Source: Escherichia coli
Lineage (GTDB): Bacteria; Pseudomonadota; Gammaproteobacteria; Enterobacterales; Enterobacteriaceae
DNA length: 64,000 nucleotides
Assembly (NCBI RefSeq): GCF_013122565.1
Contig: NZ_CP053258.1
Strand: one strand, 5' to 3'
Positions 5,023 through 23,530 of the stretch are shown in pieces. The position numbers and the translations under genes were made by a program. The notes under the pieces were generated by a model. That model saw only the letters and a program-made list of their open reading frames with translations. It did not search any database and had not been told where the DNA came from. Positions within the stretch are counted from its first letter, which is position 1, and every line of letters starts with the position of its first letter.

Positions 5023-6273
5023 ATGGATATAATGAGAAGTGTTGTGGGGATGGTGGTGTTACTGGCAATAGCATTTCTGTTGTCAGTGAATAAAAAGAGC
5101 ATCAGTTTGCGCACGGTTGGAGCCGCACTGCTGCTGCAAATCGCTATTGGTGGCATCATGCTCTACTTCCCACCGGGAAAATGGGCAGTAGAACAGGCGG
5201 CATTAGGCGTTCATAAAGTGATGTCTTACAGTGATGCCGGTAGCGCCTTTATTTTTGGTTCGCTGGTTGGGCCGAAAATGGATGTCCTGTTTGACGGTGC
5301 GGGTTTTATCTTCGCCTTTCGCGTACTTCCGGCGATTATCTTCGTCACTGCGCTCATTAGTCTGCTGTACTACATTGGCGTGATGGGGCTGCTGATTCGC
5401 ATCCTTGGCAGCATTTTCCAGAAAGCCCTCAACATCAGCAAAATCGAATCTTTTGTCGCAGTCACCACTATTTTCCTCGGGCAAAATGAGATCCCGGCGA
5501 TCGTTAAACCGTTTATCGATCGCATGAATCGCAACGAGTTGTTTACCGCAATTTGTAGCGGGATGGCGTCCATTGCTGGTTCGATGATGATTGGTTATGC
5601 CGGAATGGGCGTACCAATTGACTACCTGTTAGCGGCATCGCTGATGGCGATCCCCGGCGGTATTTTGTTTGCACGTATTCTTAGCCCGGCAACCGAGCCT
5701 TCGCAGGTCACATTTGAAAATCTGTCGTTCAGCGAAACGCCGCCAAAAAGCTTTATCGAAGCGGCGGCGAGCGGTGCGATGACCGGGCTGAAAATCGCCG
5801 CTGGTGTGGCGACGGTGGTCATGGCGTTTGTCGCAATTATTGCGCTGATCAACGGCATTATCGGCGGAATTGGCGGCTGGTTTGGTTTTGCCAATGCCTC
5901 TCTGGAAAGTATTTTTGGCTATGTGCTGGCACCGCTGGCGTGGATCATGGGTGTGGACTGGAGTGATGCCAATCTTGCGGGTAGCCTGATTGGGCAGAAA
6001 CTGGCGATTAACGAATTCGTCGCTTACCTGAGTTTCTCCCCATACCTGCAAACGGGCGGCACGCTGGAAGTGAAAACCATTGCGATTATCTCCTTTGCGC
6101 TTTGTGGTTTTGCTAACTTTGGTTCTATCGGTGTTGTCGTTGGCGCATTTTCGGCTATTTCGCCAAAACGTGCTCCGGAAATCGCTCAGCTTGGTTTACG
6201 GGCGCTGGCAGCAGCAACGCTTTCCAACCTGATGAGCGCGACTATTGCCGGGTTCTTTATTGGTTTAGCTTGA
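5023..6273 (+). CDS. psuT: NupC-family nucleoside transporter (putative pseudouridine transporter)
   Basis: 416-aa polytopic membrane ORF; matches YeiM/PsuT; close paralogue of nupX at 8210. Confidence 0.9.
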   Translation: MDIMRSVVGMVVLLAIAFLLSVNKKSISLRTVGAALLLQIAIGGIMLYFPPGKWAVEQAALGVHKVMSYSDAGSAFIFGSLVGPKMDVLFDGAGFIFAFRVLPAIIFVTALISLLYYIGVMGLLIRILGSIFQKALNISKIESFVAVTTIFLGQNEIPAIVKPFIDRMNRNELFTAICSGMASIAGSMMIGYAGMGVPIDYLLAASLMAIPGGILFARILSPATEPSQVTFENLSFSETPPKSFIEAAASGAMTGLKIAAGVATVVMAFVAIIALINGIIGGIGGWFGFANASLESIFGYVLAPLAWIMGVDWSDANLAGSLIGQKLAINEFVAYLSFSPYLQTGGTLEVKTIAIISFALCGFANFGSIGVVVGAFSAISPKRAPEIAQLGLRALAAATLSNLMSATIAGFFIGLA

Positions 6274-6279
6274 GTTTTA

Positions 6280-6319
6280 TTGCCGGATGTACTCGCTTAT
6301 TAAGCGTTGCATCCGGCAA
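6280..6319. repeat. REP-like palindrome between convergent psuT and yeiL
   Basis: ttgccggatg ... gcatccggcaa inverted repeat immediately after psuT stop. Confidence 0.55.
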
Positions 6320-6340
6320 TCGCACTATTGCAAATAATAT

Positions 6341-7000
6341 TTACTGCATCATCCCGGAGAATTTATTCTCCGGGTCCATCTCCAGCGCCAGTCCTGACAA
6401 CTGCTTTCTGTTTTTAATTAGATATCCTTTCTTGCTTTTAATTAATAAACCGTCGTGAATGAATTGTGCGAGAACATATAAAAGATGTCGATAAGAAACG
6501 CCTAAATACTCTGCCGCTTGCGTATGCTTTTCGTGATAAAGATCACCTTCTTGTGAGAGTAATATAAATGCTGCCAGGCGATTCACTAACGGAAATGATT
6601 GATTCTGAGTTAAAGAAACAATATTACGATAATTTTTATGACTTAAGGTGACGCAAAGTTTTCGTAAAAATAGGGTGTCGTTTAATAACAGCGGACGGTA
6701 ATGTTTCATAGGGAGCGCAAGGCACCAACACTCTTCAATAGCCTGTACCGCACGCGGTTCATGGTCTTTATCGATTAACTCAATCTCACCAATAAAACAG
6801 GGGGCGGCAAAGAAATCGATCAGCGACACGCGACCATTAGCTAGCGTGGCGTAAAGCCTGGCGCGGCCTCGCGTCAGGTAAAACAGCCAGGACGGCTGTT
6901 GCCCTTCCTGCACAATGTAGTCACGCGCTAAAAAATGAAACAGCCGCGTATCGGCTGAAACATCCGTTAAAAAGCAATCCTTAAACGCGGATTCACTCAT
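6341..7000 (-). CDS. yeiL: CRP/FNR-family transcriptional regulator YeiL
   Basis: ORF-track 6341..7039 begins at a GTG; internal ATG at 7000 gives the 219-aa protein [14 protein letters not shown]... matching YeiL. Confidence 0.88.
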
Positions 7001-15533: not shown

Positions 15534-17513
15534 ATGTTTAGGTTGAACCCTTTCGTACGGGTCGGGCTGTGTTTGTCCGCTATTTCTTGTGCATGGCCTG
15601 TGTTAGCGGTCGATGATGATGGCGAAACGATGGTTGTCACTGCATCTTCCGTTGAACAAAACCTTAAAGATGCACCTGCCAGTATCAGCGTCATTACCCA
15701 GGAAGACCTGCAGCGAAAACCGGTACAGAATCTGAAGGATGTCCTCAAAGAAGTGCCTGGCGTACAACTGACGAACGAAGGGGATAACCGTAAGGGCGTT
15801 AGTATTCGTGGTCTGGACAGCAGCTATACCCTGATTCTTGTCGACGGTAAACGCGTTAACTCCCGCAATGCCGTCTTCCGCCACAATGATTTCGATCTGA
15901 ACTGGATCCCGGTCGATTCCATCGAACGTATTGAAGTGGTTCGTGGCCCGATGTCGTCGCTGTACGGTTCCGATGCGCTCGGCGGTGTTGTGAATATCAT
16001 CACCAAAAAAATCGGTCAGAAATGGTCGGGTACCGTTACCGTCGATACCACCATTCAGGAACATCGCGATCGCGGTGATACCTATAACGGTCAGTTCTTT
16101 GCCAGCGGACCATTAATTGACGGTGTGCTGGGAATGAAAGCTTACGGCAGCCTGGCAAAACGTGAAAAGGATGATCCGCAAAACTCAACGACCACCGATA
16201 CTGGAGAAACGCCGCGTATTGAAGGATTCTCCAGCCGCGACGGCAATGTCGAATTTGCCTGGACACCGAATCAAAATCACGATTTTACTGCCGGATACGG
16301 TTTCGACCGTCAGGATCGTGATTCCGACTCGCTGGACAAAAACCGCCTGGAACGCCAGAACTACTCCGTCAGCCATAATGGGCGTTGGGATTACGGCACC
16401 AGCGAACTGAAATACTACGGTGAGAAAGTCGAGAACAAAAACCCTGGCAACAGCAGCCCGATAACTTCCGAAAGCAATACGGTCGACGGCAAATACACGT
16501 TGCCGCTGACGGCGATTAATCAGTTTCTCACAGTTGGCGGTGAATGGCGTCACGACAAACTTAGCGATGCGGTGAACCTGACCGGGGGAACCAGCTCCAA
16601 AACGTCTGCCAGCCAGTACGCGCTGTTTGTGGAAGATGAATGGCGGATCTTCGAGCCGCTGGCGCTGACGACCGGCGTACGTATGGACGATCATGAAACC
16701 TACGGTGAACACTGGAGTCCGCGTGCCTACCTGGTTTATAACGCCACCGACACCGTAACGGTGAAAGGGGGCTGGGCGACGGCATTTAAAGCGCCTTCTC
16801 TGTTGCAACTTAGCCCTGACTGGACGAGCAATTCCTGCCGTGGCGCATGTAAGATTGTGGGTAGCCCGGATCTGAAACCAGAAACCAGCGAAAGTTGGGA
16901 GCTGGGGCTTTACTATATGGGTGAAGAAGGCTGGCTGGAAGGGGTTGAATCCAGCGTTACCGTTTTCCGTAACGATGTGAAAGATCGCATCAGCATCAGC
17001 CGTACGTCTGACGTCAATGCTGCACCGGGCTACCAAAACTTTGTCGGTTTTACAGCGGGCGGTGTGCCGGTATTCAGCTACTACAACGTTAACAAAGCAC
17101 GTATTCAGGGCGTGGAAACCGAACTGAAAATTCCGTTCAACGATGAATGGAAACTGTCACTCAACTACACCTACAACGATGGTCGTGATGTCAGCAACGG
17201 CGAAAATAAACCGCTATCCGATCTGCCGTTCCATACTGCTAACGGTACGCTGGACTGGAAACCGCTGGCGCTGGAAGACTGGTCATTCTATGTTTCTGGT
17301 CACTATACCGGGCAGAAACGAGCCGACAGCGCGACGGCTAAAACACCGGGCGGTTATACCATCTGGAATACCGGCGCGGCCTGGCAGGTGACCAAAGATG
17401 TCAAACTGCGCGCAGGCGTGCTGAACCTTGGCGACAAGGATCTCAGTCGTGACGACTACAGCTATAACGAAGACGGACGTCGTTACTTTATGGCAGTGGA
17501 TTATCGCTTCTGA
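15534..17513 (+). CDS. cirA: TonB-dependent catecholate siderophore / colicin I receptor
   Basis: 659-aa ORF with signal peptide, TonB box (ETMVVTAS) and C-terminal ...AVDYRF; matches CirA. Confidence 0.95.
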
Positions 17514-17520
17514 TGAGAAG

Positions 17521-17547
17521 ATGCCCGGCGCGGATCCTGCCGGGCAT
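17521..17547. terminator. GC-rich hairpin between convergent cirA and the island transporter (possible bidirectional terminator, no U-tract)
   Basis: atgcccggc gcggatcct gccgggcat: 9-bp perfect stem. Confidence 0.35.
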
Positions 17548-17571
17548 AATGCCAGAAATTCGGTTCTGGAT

Positions 17572-18894
17572 TTATAACCGATGAAATTTTGCCAGTAAGG
17601 CCAGTGAAAATGTTGTCAGCAAAATGGTAATGACGGCGTAAATATACACGCCTGACCATTCCCAACTGTTTTTCACCATAATAACTGGAAGCCCTGCCAT
17701 TGCCGCGCCTACATAACTAAATAAGCCCCTGAACCCAGTAATGGAACCTGCCGCATCTTTATGCGTAACATCAAGACATCCGACAGCGAATAACATATGT
17801 GGTCCATATAATGCAAACCCCATGATTGTAAAAAGAATAGCCGTTAATGTGTAGGAGACGTCCTGCACCAGCGGCACGAGAACGATGCAAATACATAAGG
17901 CGATGGCAAACATTAATCCGGTCATCCAGCGGTTACTTTTAAACATAAAATCGGACAAGTACCCCGCCAGTAATCCCCCTGCAAGTCCACCTGCTTCAAA
18001 CCAGGATATAATGGAGTTCGCTTTAATCAGGCTCCAGTTATGAACCTGAGAATAATAAATTTGTGGCCAGTCATTGAGGATGGTGCGTGCAATATAGACT
18101 GACATATCCCCGAGGATAATCAGCCAAACTAATGGGTTGGTAAGAATATATTTAATGAAAATTTGCCAAAAACTCAGATCTACCGGGCTTGCTTTAACTT
18201 GTGCAAGTTCTGTCGGGTCGTTGCGCCACTTACCTACGTTAGGCAAACCGAGTGTGCCAGGACGATCTTTAATCGTAAACAGGGCAACAACCCCCATAAT
18301 CAGCGATATTACACCCGGAACATAAAAGCCCATTTTCCAGCTGCCACTAAAAGCAATGGCAAAGCTTGTCAGGAGAGGCGCAAGACTACCGCCAATATTA
18401 TGCGCCGCTTCAACAACTGCCCACCAGCGCCCGCGTTCATTTTTAGAAAACCACGAGGCCATAATTTTTGCCATCGGCGGAAAACTGGTACCCTGAAGAA
18501 TAGCATTAAGGCTATACAGGATATAGAACGCAGCAACGCTGTCTGAAAAACCGAAAAGAATGTTAACAATACCGACGCCAATAAGTACGGGGCCGGTCAT
18601 TGCGCGTGGGTTAATTTTATCGACTAACATGCCCCCTACAAACTTCATGGAGCCATAAAGAATGTAAAAGACCGACGACATGATAGCGAAATCTTGTGCG
18701 GTTAATGACGTATCCGTCAACATCGCCGGCATGGCCGCAGAGAAATTCTTGCGGGTTAAATAAAATACGGCATAAGAGATAAATACAGAGGTGATGATTT
18801 CAATACGAAATTTTTTATAAGTATGATCAACTTCTTCTTTCGGTTTGACCACTGGTTGGTCGGCCTGGCTGAAAATAAATTTTTTCAAGCTCAT
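17572..18894 (-). CDS. Organophosphate:phosphate antiporter family MFS transporter (GlpT/UhpT/PgtP-like); accessory
   Basis: 440-aa 12-TM ORF; N-terminal VDHTYKKFRIEII and YLTRKNF, WFSKNERGRWWAVVEAAHNIGG and YGPHMLF closely parallel GlpT/PgtP signature regions recalled from E. coli/Salmonella; RBS aaggaaa before the ATG. Confidence 0.8.
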   Translation of the reverse strand: MSLKKFIFSQADQPVVKPKEEVDHTYKKFRIEIITSVFISYAVFYLTRKNFSAAMPAMLTDTSLTAQDFAIMSSVFYILYGSMKFVGGMLVDKINPRAMTGPVLIGVGIVNILFGFSDSVAAFYILYSLNAILQGTSFPPMAKIMASWFSKNERGRWWAVVEAAHNIGGSLAPLLTSFAIAFSGSWKMGFYVPGVISLIMGVVALFTIKDRPGTLGLPNVGKWRNDPTELAQVKASPVDLSFWQIFIKYILTNPLVWLIILGDMSVYIARTILNDWPQIYYSQVHNWSLIKANSIISWFEAGGLAGGLLAGYLSDFMFKSNRWMTGLMFAIALCICIVLVPLVQDVSYTLTAILFTIMGFALYGPHMLFAVGCLDVTHKDAAGSITGFRGLFSYVGAAMAGLPVIMVKNSWEWSGVYIYAVITILLTTFSLALLAKFHRL

Positions 18895-18926
18895 CGTGAG
18901 TTTCCTTTTCTGTGAACCTTATGGTG

Positions 18927-19814
18927 CTATAGTTTTTCTTCTATAAAAAAGAGAAGCGACTCGAAACCATTAAAATTAATCTGGTTAGTAACTTTTTCCC
19001 GGGTTTTAGGTTTTGCTTTCCATGCCACGCCATACCCGGCATGCAGAAGCATAGGAATATCATTAGCGCCATCTCCGCAGGCAATGATGTTTTCACGACA
19101 AATAGATAACTCTGTCGCCAAATTTATCAGGGTTTGCTTTTTCTTTTCTGCATTCATAATGGGAAAGGTAATTTTGTCAGTTAATAGATCTTCCTGAATG
19201 CGTACAGAGTTAGAAAATGCAAAATCAAGTTGATATTTTTCTTTTAATCTCTCAGTAAAAATATCTAAACCGCCGGATATAATTGCCGTCTTGAATCCTT
19301 TTTCTTTAAGAATGGGAAGAATAGTTTTAAGACCTGGTGAAAGGGTCATCTGTTCACAAACCTGATGCAATATATCTTTATGTGTTCCTTTAAGCATGCC
19401 AATTCGGCGGGTAAAACTGGTATCAAAATCGATTTTTCCTTCCATCGCTTCACGGGTCAGCGCGGTGATTTTTTCAGAGATCCCGAGTCTACGGGCTATT
19501 TCATCGACGCCTTCCTCTTCAACAAAGGTGGAATCCATATCAAAGGCAATAATTCCCTCAGCCGGTAAGTCCGTAGGTTTGCGGAAAAAATCAAAATGAT
19601 GATGATCAGCACGGTGACGTAAACCAGCATAAAAATCAGGATTGGTTACATCATCTGTTAATACTAGCTTTAGATACTCTTTATTTATTTGCTCACTGTA
19701 ATTCGTTGTTAACGAAAACACCGAGGATGAAACCTTTAAATGTTGCAAATAATGTTCCAGACATTTTTTGGTGATGTCGATGCCTGTTGGCGACAAGAAA
19801 TAAATAATCGTCAT
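18927..19814 (-). CDS. Phosphoserine-phosphatase-like HAD hydrolase (SerB paralogue); accessory
   Basis: 295-aa ORF with HAD motif I FDMDSTF, EAMEGKIDFDTSFTRRIGMLKG and GDGANDIPML...AWKAKPK closely paralleling E. coli SerB catalytic-domain motifs; no signal peptide. Confidence 0.8.
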   Translation of the reverse strand: MTIIYFLSPTGIDITKKCLEHYLQHLKVSSSVFSLTTNYSEQINKEYLKLVLTDDVTNPDFYAGLRHRADHHHFDFFRKPTDLPAEGIIAFDMDSTFVEEEGVDEIARRLGISEKITALTREAMEGKIDFDTSFTRRIGMLKGTHKDILHQVCEQMTLSPGLKTILPILKEKGFKTAIISGGLDIFTERLKEKYQLDFAFSNSVRIQEDLLTDKITFPIMNAEKKKQTLINLATELSICRENIIACGDGANDIPMLLHAGYGVAWKAKPKTREKVTNQINFNGFESLLFFIEEKL

Positions 19815-20023
19815 TTACCGCTCCTTTTTATCTGCAATGATTATAATAAGGTTTCGTAGCGGCTGATGTATCTAACAATCACAGTTGTGAATGTTAAATA
19901 AAAGATAAAAAAGTGCTTTTTTTGATACCCTGAAATAATAAGATACTAAAAGTACCATTTTTGATACCTTTGCCAGGATATAACGAATAACGAGTTTCAA
20001 CGTTGAAGGAATCATTTACAAAA

Positions 20024-21376
20024 ATGGAAAGCTGCTTAGATATATTCAAGATAGTTATAGGTCCATCCAGTTCCCGCACTGTCGGGCCAATGCGTGCGGC
20101 TTATAATTTTGTCTCACAATTGAAACAGCGAGAAATGTTACCTTTGTTGCGGAAAATTGATGTCGAACTTTATGGCGCACTGTCATTAAGCCGCAAGTGC
20201 CATAATGTTGATGTGGCGATTTATCTCGGTTTGCAAGGTCACTTACCTGACAGCGTTGATATCCGCATGGAAATGTCCGCCATCAGGCGTGCGGAAACTG
20301 AGGCGACGCTGGAAGTTATGCCTGGTGTCAACGTTGGTGTAGCCATTATTTCTAATCCACAGGCGCACCCGGGGCATCCTTATGCGATGACATTTCGTGC
20401 CAGAGATGACTGGTTTACGCTTTATGAAGAAACCTGCTTTTCTGTCGGCGACGGTCAGGTTCAAAAAGCGGGAGAGGCGATGATTCCCTCCTCAGTCACT
20501 CCACATCCTTTTGAATTCCAGAACGCAAACGAATTATTAAAACTTTGTCAGCAAAACGGATTATCTGTTGCGGCATTAATGATGAAAAACGAACTACACT
20601 GCCAGACTTCTGATTTTTTGCATGACGATCTCAATAAAAAATGGGAAGTAATGAAGGATGCGGTCTATCGCGGGATGCATACAGAGGGATTACTTCCTGG
20701 TCCGTATCAGGTTAACCGTCGTGCCTGTGCTTTATATAAATCGTTGCAGGCAAAGGGGTTTACCAATGACTTCCTGACTACGATCAATTGGGTCAATACT
20801 TTTGCCATTGCGGTGAGCGAAGAAAATGCTGCAGGTGGACGCGTCGTGACAGCACCCACCAACGGCGCGAGCGGTATTATCCCGGCCGTACTGTGTTGGT
20901 ATGACAAATTCATTCACGAGCTTGATACTTACTCCGTTACCCGCTTTTTTCTGACCGCCGGTGCCATAGCCATTCTGTTCAAAAAAAATGCCTCTATTCT
21001 GGGGTCTGAAGTTGGATGTCAGGGGGAAATAGGCGTTGCCAGTTCAATGGCGGCAGCAGGATTAGCAGAACTTATGGGCGGGTCAGTGACTCAGGTACTC
21101 AGCGCGGCAGAAATTGCGATGGAACACCATTTAGGTTTGACCTGTGATCCAGTTGGCGGGCAGGTACAAATTCCTTGTATTGAACGAAATGCTATTTCAG
21201 CCGTGAAAGCTATCAACGCAACGACGATGGCTTTGAGTCGCATAAGCGAGCCGTGCATTACGCTGGATGAGATAATTTCCGCGATGTATGAAACCGGAAA
21301 GGATATGAGCGCTAAATACCGGGAAACTTATCATGGCTGTCTTAGCAAATTGCAGCCAAGAAAAAAGGACGCGTAA
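20024..21376 (+). CDS. L-serine dehydratase (Fe-S, SdaA/SdaB/TdcG family paralogue); accessory
   Basis: ORF-track 20003..21376 starts at a TTG; ATG at 20024 ([23 protein letters not shown]...) aligns with the SdaA N-terminus [23 protein letters not shown]; conserved [25 protein letters not shown] and LTCDPV..GQVQ.PCIERNA blocks. Confidence 0.85.
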
Positions 21377-21377
21377 G

Positions 21378-21767
21378 ATGAAATACAATACCATGAATAA
21401 CAACGAAATTATTTTATCTCTGTGCGCACGTATTAAAGAAACGCGGATCTCATTATCATTGACCCAGCAGCAGTTAGCCGATCGTGCATTGGTGGGCATT
21501 GCAACGGTCAAGCGGATTGAAAAGGGGGGAAGTTTAAATCTTGATACCCTCATTTCTCTTCTGCGCGCGCTGAATAAATTGCAAAATCTCGATGCCATAT
21601 TGTTCGAAGCAGAAATGCGTAATTTCAATGAAAATACTTCCAGCGGCGAAGGGGCAGGGCGACTTCAGGTGCGCCAGCAACTGACAGATTTAAACCAGAA
21701 GTCTCCAGCCCCGCACGCAGATGACCGTGATTTTAGTACGGCGCTGGAAAATACTCTTTGCTGGTGA
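21378..21767 (+). CDS. XRE-family (Cro/CI-type HTH) transcriptional regulator; accessory
   Basis: ORF-track 21333..21767; ATG at 21378 (MKYNTMNNNEIILSLCARIKETRISLSLTQQQLADRALVGIATVKRIEKGG) begins 1 nt after the dehydratase stop; typical HTH_XRE signature. Confidence 0.75.
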   Translation: MKYNTMNNNEIILSLCARIKETRISLSLTQQQLADRALVGIATVKRIEKGGSLNLDTLISLLRALNKLQNLDAILFEAEMRNFNENTSSGEGAGRLQVRQQLTDLNQKSPAPHADDRDFSTALENTLCW

Positions 21768-22637
<870 letters not shown>

Positions 22638-22861
22638 TCATCATACCGTTTATTCAATGTGCTGTGAGTAACTTTCACTTCCGTATTTGCATAACGATGT
22701 TTTAACATCTGCTGATGAAAGGCAGCGGCAATTACAATAATTATCGCTGTGAATACTGGATTATGTGCGCCGCCTCACGCACAATAATCAGGCTGTAAAT
22801 CAGCTTAATAACTTTGCCCCCACGCAGGGCGGAGGCGTCACACCTGCAGGAGAAATCATAA

Positions 22862-23530
22862 ATGCCATCACTCAGTAAAGAAGCGGCCCTGGTTCATGAA
22901 GCGTTAGTTGCGCGAGGACTGGAAACACCGCTGCGCCCGCCCGTGCATGAAATGGATAACGAAACGCGCAAAAGCCTTATTGCTGGTCATATGACCGAAA
23001 TCATGCAGCTGCTGAATCTCGACCTGGCTGATGACAGTTTGATGGAAACGCCGCATCGCATCGCTAAAATGTATGTCGATGAAATTTTCTCCGGTCTGGA
23101 TTACGCCAACTTCCCGAAAATCACCCTCATTGAAAACAAAATGAAGGTCGATGAAATGGTCACCGTGCGCGATATCACTCTGACCAGTACCTGTGAACAC
23201 CATTTTGTTACCATCGATGGCAAAGCGACGGTGGCTTATATCCCGAAAGATTCGGTGATCGGTCTGTCAAAAATTAACCGTATCGTGCAGTTCTTTGCCC
23301 AGCGTCCGCAGGTGCAGGAACGTCTGACGCAGCAAATTCTTATTGCGCTACAAACGCTGCTGGGCACCAATAACGTGGCTGTCTCTATCGACGCGGTGCA
23401 TTACTGCGTGAAGGCGCGTGGCATCCGCGATGCAACCAGTGCCACGACAACGACCTCTCTTGGTGGATTGTTCAAATCCAGTCAGAATACGCGCCACGAG
23501 TTTCTGCGCGCTGTGCGTCATCACAACTGA
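22862..23530 (+). CDS. folE: GTP cyclohydrolase I
   Basis: 222-aa [27 protein letters not shown]...; matches FolE. Confidence 0.95.

Follow-up and report, generated by a model that had tools for sequence, protein, structure and literature searches.

Where two genes on opposite strands end on adjacent bases, it is natural to ask whether the arrangement records the arrival of one of them, whether it does something for their expression, or whether it is simply an old neighbourhood that happens to leave nothing in between. This question is raised by a small regulator gene and yeiG, which meet tail to tail within a 64,000-nt stretch of the Escherichia coli genome (NCBI RefSeq assembly GCF_013122565.1, contig NZ_CP053258.1; referred to here as the window), and for which a preliminary description had favoured the first of these answers. 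The reading considered likely here is that the two form an ordinary tail-to-tail pair with flush stop codons, inherited or fixed early in the Escherichia-Citrobacter-Salmonella-Scandinavium group, and that the junction does not stem from a recent insertion.

The two genes and their junction

The elements that meet at the junction are the following.

21378 to 21767, + strand: XRE-family HTH regulator gene, 129 aa, with a match to HTH_3 (PF01381) and ending ...ENTLCW-TGA
21765 to 21767, + strand: regulator stop codon, TGA in 11 of 11 species-level genomes
21768 to 22604, - strand: yeiG, S-formylglutathione hydrolase (YeiG/FghA), 278 aa, with matches to TIGR02821 and PF00756
21768 to 21770, - strand: yeiG stop codon, flush with the regulator stop; TAA or TGA elsewhere, at the same position in 8 of 11

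The regulator stop codon TGA can be read directly in the sequence at 21765-21767 (+), while the yeiG stop codon TAA (-), which appears as TTA on the + strand, occupies 21768-21770; the genes face each other tail to tail on opposite strands, the intergenic distance is 0 nt, and the sequence runs ...gctggTGA directly into TTAttcctgtaaata... That the two stop codons touch, as first described, is borne out by the sequence, the list of open reading frames and the RefSeq annotations alike, CDS ends on adjacent bases being found also in the RefSeq annotation of five E. coli genomes that carry the same cluster of genes (of which more below). The regulator start used here, 21378, is the RefSeq-style start of those five genomes, whereas the mechanical open reading frame begins at 21333 and would encode 144 aa.

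Both members of the pair are backed as protein-coding by family matches and by conserved homologs, so that this is a genuine case of two coding genes at a distance of 0 nt or less, i.e. a convergent abutting or overlapping pair. The regulator matches HTH_3 (PF01381) with 37 bits against a cut-off of 23 (2.9e-9), while its C-terminal part of about 60 aa gave no family match in the domain search; its terminal Trp and the position of its stop are invariant across 17 homologs. YeiG reaches 392 bits against a cut-off of 281.7 on TIGR02821, over residues 2-275, and thus qualifies as a full-length match. In comparisons with other genera the bias of substitutions towards codon position 3 reaches the 3' ends of both genes. 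An artificial extension of the regulator reading frame up to yeiG was also considered and is ruled out, since the C-terminal pattern ...E-x-x-x-x-W-stop is kept in all homologs.

How common the arrangement is, and how it varies between species

A zero gap between convergent genes is in itself statistically unremarkable, and belongs to a known and fairly common class. The window contains eight convergent pairs, of which the regulator and yeiG alone lack a spacer, the rest being 40-211 nt apart; in E. coli as a whole 58 convergent overlaps have been counted, with about 20% of the genes involved having an intrinsic terminator, and such overlaps arise by mutation of stop codons (PMC2174442). The pairs of that survey resemble the present one in lying on opposite strands with 3' ends that meet and no spacer, and in mostly being without intrinsic terminators; stop loss, moreover, also made the 12-nt overlaps found in Salmonella and Scandinavium (see below). 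They differ from it in that the frequent class there is a 4-nt overlap (CTAA, TTAA, CTAG or TTAG), whereas here the distance is exactly 0, and in that one partner here is part of a cluster that some E. coli carry and others lack. Spacer-less convergent pairs being both common and well described, the junction as such carries little mechanistic weight.

How it has fared in other species is more informative. A scan using one genome per species found 11 species-level genomes with the cluster beside yeiG, namely E. whittamii, S. arizonae, S. diarizonae, C. portucalensis, C. youngae, C. koseri, C. werkmanii and four further Citrobacter species. The gap is 0 in eight of these (TGA followed by TTA or TCA), and in the other three (S. 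arizonae, S. diarizonae and ‘Citrobacter sp. 18056’/Scandinavium) there is a 12-nt overlap, the yeiG stop having been lost and its reading frame continuing through the stop and Trp codons of the regulator to a TAA. The sole positive gap, of 21 nt, belongs to a genome of S. enterica subsp. enterica in which a premature TAA cuts the regulator short. This truncated regulator is 118 aa long (L014 6001-6357), and the protein cluster P0014 has 32 member sequences. In several Citrobacter species the flush stops read TGATCA, a perfect palindrome with a Dam site (GATC) within it, the corresponding E. coli sequence being TGATTA.

It is the conservation of the abutment, and not the zero gap itself, that exceeds chance. 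Even so, a function cannot be read from the conservation of the zero gap alone: purifying selection acts on both C-termini and deletions destroy a stop, so that the only neutral change of length is an insertion at one bond. On this argument the zero gap would be mutationally ‘frozen’, a single phosphodiester bond making up the whole of the neutral target, with loss of the yeiG stop, leading to the 12-nt overlap of Salmonella and Scandinavium, as the alternative route. The switching between TAA and TGA and the overlaps due to stop loss are what the stop-codon-mutation model of convergent overlaps predicts (PMC2174442).

The gene cluster beside yeiG and its age

Four genes sit between cirA and yeiG, and the regulator is the last gene of an sdaA-like/regulator operon. 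The further elements are listed here.

15534 to 17513, + strand: cirA
17514 to 17571: convergent spacer between cirA and the MFS transporter gene, with two strong hairpins (folding z = -3.65/-3.48)
17572 to 18894, - strand: MFS transporter, UhpC/PgtP/GlpT-like, 440 aa, resembling organophosphate:phosphate antiporters
18927 to 19814, - strand: SerB-like phosphoserine phosphatase paralog, 295 aa (TIGR00338, 210 bits against 144)
19815 to 20023: divergent promoter region of the serB-like and sdaA-like genes, with conserved twin 21-nt motifs and a conserved palindrome
20024 to 21376, + strand: SdaA-like L-serine ammonia-lyase paralog, 450 aa (TIGR00720, 545 bits against 345)

In the preliminary description the junction was that of an acquired operon. 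Put in its strongest form, such an account would have a horizontally acquired island enter exactly where yeiG ends, with the flush stops as a scar of the insertion that forces read-through and antisense interference. Three things speak for it. The GC content, 38-47% in the cluster and 51-54% in the flanks, is atypical in the way looked for in an island; a search of 5,426 complete E. coli genomes found only 85 that hold at least 80% of the cluster and 89 that hold some of it; and the junction has no terminator. However, the same cluster with the same flush junction recurs at this locus across four genera or more, and the signatures that normally accompany integration are missing: a scan around the cluster revealed no tRNA, a repeat search revealed neither direct repeats on the two sides of the segment nor an inverted repeat where the stops meet, and searches of the four cluster genes against PHROGs and protein families revealed no phage or mobility function, so that there is neither integrase nor IS element nor any other mobility machinery to point to.

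The synteny between genera is extensive. Regulator homologs of 65-78% identity occur in Citrobacter, Salmonella and Scandinavium, and the four genes stand in unchanged order, with yeiG-folE-yeiB-galS-mglB after them and a TonB receptor on the other side, in C. koseri, C. freundii, S. enterica subsp. diarizonae and subsp. enterica, Scandinavium and two metagenomic contigs. Between E. coli and the other genera the nucleotide identity of the cluster genes is 64-79%, and that of the flanks (yeiG, folE, yeiB, galS) 74-88%; since the cluster has diverged at least as much as the flanks, there has been no recent transfer between genera, and the age of the cluster in these lineages is at least that of the flanks. 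The GC content of the cluster is below that of the flanks in every genus, Citrobacter, Salmonella and Scandinavium included, which implies that any acquisition was ancient. Taken as a recent event, therefore, the ‘acquired operon’ is contradicted both by the recurrence of the same cluster, locus and flush or overlapping junction in Citrobacter, Salmonella, Scandinavium and E. whittamii, and by a divergence between genera no smaller than that of the flanks, together with the lack of tRNA, repeats and mobility genes. The insertion account is largely refuted by this cross-genus synteny and must be rated very improbable.

A few further observations on the distribution may be recorded. The cluster is common across Citrobacter (472 contigs are on record for the regulator protein of C. 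koseri alone), present in Salmonella and Scandinavium, and rare in E. coli. In C. koseri and C. freundii the TonB-dependent receptor to the left of the cluster (L007, L009 1-1858) is on the strand opposite to that of E. coli cirA. Scandinavium (L013 7366-8514) has an extra MFS gene that separates yeiG from folE, and the distance between these two is similarly enlarged in ‘Citrobacter sp. 18056’. Mangrovibacter, Budvicia, Limnobaculum, Leminorella and Gilliamella have a regulator of about 40% identity lying convergent with an sdaA-like gene (about 51%) across a spacer of at least 60 nt; these distant pairs imply that the association of the regulator with a serine dehydratase is far older than the cluster adjacent to yeiG, and their spacers imply that the lack of any gap is peculiar to the junction with yeiG.

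Within E. coli the copies of the cluster diverge from one another by up to 5.2%, and some are decaying. In strain MB53 an IS1 has taken the place of the regulator and of the 3' half of the sdaA-like gene; CFS3246 has one where most of the serB-like and sdaA-like genes would be. The element is IS1A, with adjacent deletions, in both cases: in MB53 (L038 4384-5081) the MFS gene is also frameshifted and the regulator lost, while in CFS3246 and 35 (L039 2748-3445) the serB-like and sdaA-like genes are lost and the abutment of the regulator and yeiG is kept. Erosion by IS1 indicates that loss of the cluster from E. coli is ongoing, which again runs against the insertion account, and judging by the comparison of genomes the cluster is most likely ancestral and was lost in most E. 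coli. The pair itself would then go back to the common ancestor of Escherichia, Citrobacter, Salmonella and Scandinavium, or have been fixed very early there, with the cluster as an old, low-GC syntenic block beside yeiG that most E. coli would have lost. The inheritance need not have been vertical, as homologous recombination between relatives through the conserved flanks could also have moved the cluster. The value of the comparison is mainly corrective, in that what was called an island junction is an old, conserved arrangement, and the cluster a long-standing presence/absence polymorphism.

The boundary of the polymorphic segment and the C-terminus of YeiG

Comparison of the two states of the locus places the boundary rather precisely.

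17531 to 21775: polymorphic segment, 4,245 nt, which takes in the last 8 nt of yeiG
21768 to 21775, - strand: last 8 nt of yeiG, co-segregating with the cluster; TTATTCCT here against TCACTTCA in cluster-free strains

In a two-state alignment the common sequence runs as far as ...GATGCCCGGCG (17530) and resumes at GTAAATA (21776), positions 17531-21775 being replaced in cluster-free genomes by 22 nt (AACCGGGCGGACTT + TCACTTCA). When a 156-nt query across the junction was run against the whole E. coli collection, 89 genomes matched it end to end and about 5,240 from query base 87, which is 21776. The junction had been placed at the exact 3' end of yeiG, and this proves to be wrong by a small margin: homology with the roughly 5,240 cluster-free genomes begins at 21776, 8 nt inside yeiG. 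The alignment with the K-12 cirA-yeiG region that had been suggested for placing the insertion point also gives a break inside yeiG, the two alleles using different stop codons. The position of this break is a further point against the insertion account.

What the polymorphic segment carries, then, is the last two codons of yeiG together with its stop, and the C-terminus of YeiG differs according to whether the cluster is present. The last two codons and the stop read CAGGAATAA (QE*) with the cluster against CTGAAGTGA (LK*) without it, the protein ending ...AQYLQE-TAA in cluster-bearing strains and ...AQYLLK-TGA in cluster-free ones. Every cluster-bearing Escherichia mismatches K-12 at positions 2, 4, 6 and 8 of the yeiG 3' end; the four differences thus fall on alternate bases (window 21768-21775; L002 2745-2752). 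In genomes of the K-12 type, 31 nt with a single hairpin (GCCCGG-CGAA-CCGGGC) separate the cirA stop from the yeiG stop TGA, and for 6 nt of this spacer, GGACTT, no source was identified in the cluster-bearing sequence. On the preferred reading, the 22-nt remnant with its hairpin would be what joins cirA to yeiG after loss of the cluster.

The end of yeiG is also informative about ancestry. Cluster-bearing Citrobacter have TCACTTCAG (YLLK*), identical to K-12, which makes YLLK* the ancestral state and YLQE or YLRE the derived one; the latter is common to all cluster-bearing Escherichia (E. coli, E. whittamii). The history within Escherichia is, as far as these sequences reveal it, not one of simple retention, the cluster-bearers sharing a derived yeiG end while the cluster-free strains keep a Citrobacter-like YLLK. 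In the body of the gene the picture varies between strains. In RMDEC465 (L005) and E400634 (L006) yeiG is about 9% diverged from that of other E. coli and (at 5750-6586) shares many variant sites with E. whittamii (L018 3391-4227), which suggests that it may be either introgressed or part of a very old haplotype around the cluster, while in the window and in L001 it is 98-99% K-12-like until 8 nt from its end. Taken together, the yeiG pattern suggests one of two histories. In one, the polymorphism would be very old, and recombination would have evened out the flanks as far as the boundary; in the other, the source would be a diverged Escherichia lineage, by introgression.

A rather different history has accordingly to be considered, in which the Escherichia ancestor lost the cluster (and kept YLLK*), E. 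coli regained it by homologous recombination from an E. whittamii-like lineage, and the flanks were later replaced up to the boundary; the abutment itself would still be ancient. The derived yeiG end TTATTCC(T/C) shared by all cluster-bearing Escherichia, set beside the TCACTTCA shared by cluster-free E. coli and Citrobacter, speaks for this, as do the divergent, E. whittamii-like yeiG of RMDEC465 and E400634 and the K-12-like yeiG of the window and L001 with its abrupt change at 8 nt from the end. However, the divergence among E. coli copies of the cluster reaches the 5.2% noted above, the SerB and SdaA paralogs of E. whittamii are only 81-88% identical to those of E. coli, no close donor has been identified, and a long-lived presence/absence polymorphism would give the same pattern. 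Loss followed by regain is on this evidence a possible but somewhat doubtful history.

Termination and predicted read-through at the junction

The preliminary description noted that there is no room for a terminator between the two stops, and this holds in a wider sense, since beyond the 0-nt gap itself both the consensus scan and folding come up empty for about 120 nt past each stop. The scan for consensus terminators and promoters over 17300-23000 gave nothing at the junction, with counts at or below shuffle expectation, and within 21600-21900 it gave no terminator-like site, so that there is no bidirectional terminator of consensus type in that interval. The roughly 120 nt past each stop fold no more stably than shuffled sequence (z = -0.30 and -0.77), while the same procedure gave z = -3.65/-3.48 for the cirA/MFS spacer and z = -3.18/-1.90 for the K-12 cirA/yeiG spacer, both used as positive controls. 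An Rfam scan of 17000-23000 at E<=1 returned two sub-threshold chance matches to eukaryotic families, in the sdaA-like gene, and nothing else.

The hairpins of the two states are related, the left arm of those in the cirA/MFS spacer being common to the single K-12 hairpin that serves cirA and yeiG. With just one hairpin in the spacer of cluster-free strains, yeiG shares cirA's hairpin there as a two-way terminator; in cluster-bearing strains the hairpin remains with cirA, and yeiG is left without an intrinsic terminator. Given neither spacer nor terminator structure, each transcript must end inside the opposite gene, and given no stem-loop, termination must be imprecise and/or Rho-dependent. 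Windows with C/G ratios of 1.4-2.2, a heuristic for Rho, begin some 180-300 nt past each stop and fall within roughly +180 to +320 nt on either side, with peaks of 2.1-2.2 at about +200 to +300; these would be compatible with Rho acting on untranslated read-through RNA. Head-on polymerase collisions may be a second factor, having been reported to add to termination at convergent pairs, with a stem-loop required for defined positions (bioRxiv 10.1101/2022.10.23.513370).

On the preferred reading, that of an old tail-to-tail pair, the sdaA-like/regulator and yeiG transcripts would each extend into the opposite gene as untranslated antisense RNA, Rho and/or head-on collision would probably stop both, and the outcome would be short complementary 3' ends with, at the very most, a slight damping of each gene by the other that depends on expression. 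Read-through and some antisense overlap at the junction are thus plausible, and the apparent age of the arrangement shows that the abutment is at least well tolerated. One point of comparison is mscL-arfA in E. coli, where antisense regulation of convergent genes through overlapping 3' UTRs has reportedly been found; the likeness is that the genes converge and that transcripts complementary at their 3' ends are expected, while the difference is that any regulatory role for the predicted regulator/yeiG overlap is hypothetical. Bidirectional terminators with programmed collisions (bioRxiv 10.1101/2022.10.23.513370) are also comparable, in being convergent and in that head-on encounters are to be expected if both genes are expressed. 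That model fits the cluster-free cirA/yeiG spacer, which has one GC-rich hairpin in 31 nt, but the regulator and yeiG have neither the spacer nor the stem-loop that is needed to position collisions.

It might be argued that the flush junction has been selected, transcription of the induced serine-catabolic operon into yeiG (or the reverse) making a conserved link by way of antisense RNA, RNase III or collision, through which the expression of S-formylglutathione hydrolase would be tied to the activity of the cluster. None of the 11 species has a spacer, a terminator is missing in both directions, and antisense transcription from the 3' end of a gene produces graded repression and can tune expression (PMC4731013). 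However, the tiny neutral target for changes of length explains the conservation more simply, and the junction tolerates the TAA/TGA switch, the 12-nt overlap and, with a truncated regulator, the 21-nt gap; most E. coli, moreover, manage yeiG without the cluster, and the junction offers no conserved structure and no Rfam match. Selection for the flush junction is thus highly unlikely. Even less is to be expected of the narrower proposal that the missing spacer is functional, in the sense that transcription of the operon (putatively one for phosphoserine or serine catabolism), when induced, would enter yeiG and lower S-formylglutathione hydrolase by collision or antisense, or the reverse, although if this were true the junction would tie serine and one-carbon metabolism to formaldehyde detoxification, with folE next door. 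What the locus could more modestly provide is a natural test case for termination of two genes with neither terminator nor spacer between them.

The neighbouring genes

The uncharacterised cluster of transporter, SerB, SdaA and regulator genes is probably a more rewarding target than the junction, and no paper on this locus or cluster was found in the literature. Its transporter falls under the cut-off of every named family (422 bits against 564 for the UhpC subfamily). From its composition the cluster looks like a module for uptake and catabolism of an organophosphate, and one might guess at phosphoserine -> serine -> pyruvate + ammonia as the pathway. The stop of the sdaA-like gene lies 1 nt before the ATG of the regulator, which makes co-transcription of the two likely, and transcription of the + strand towards yeiG presumably starts within 19815-20023. 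This promoter region holds twin 21-nt motifs at 19909-19929 and 19948-19968, direct copies of AAAAGTNC(N)TTTTTGATACC placed 39 nt apart, and just upstream of them a palindrome, ATCACAGNTGTGAAT (the whole lying within 19877-19968). Both the twin motifs and the palindrome are kept in E. whittamii, Citrobacter, Salmonella and Scandinavium (seven sequences from four genera), and they are candidate operators for the regulator.

On the far side of the cluster, cirA is 659 aa long here, as it is in RMDEC465 (L005), E400634 (L006) and MB53, and 663 aa in K-12, S3 and others. The difference in length is in frame, and lies about 450-490 nt before the stop, where an ungapped comparison with K-12 breaks down.
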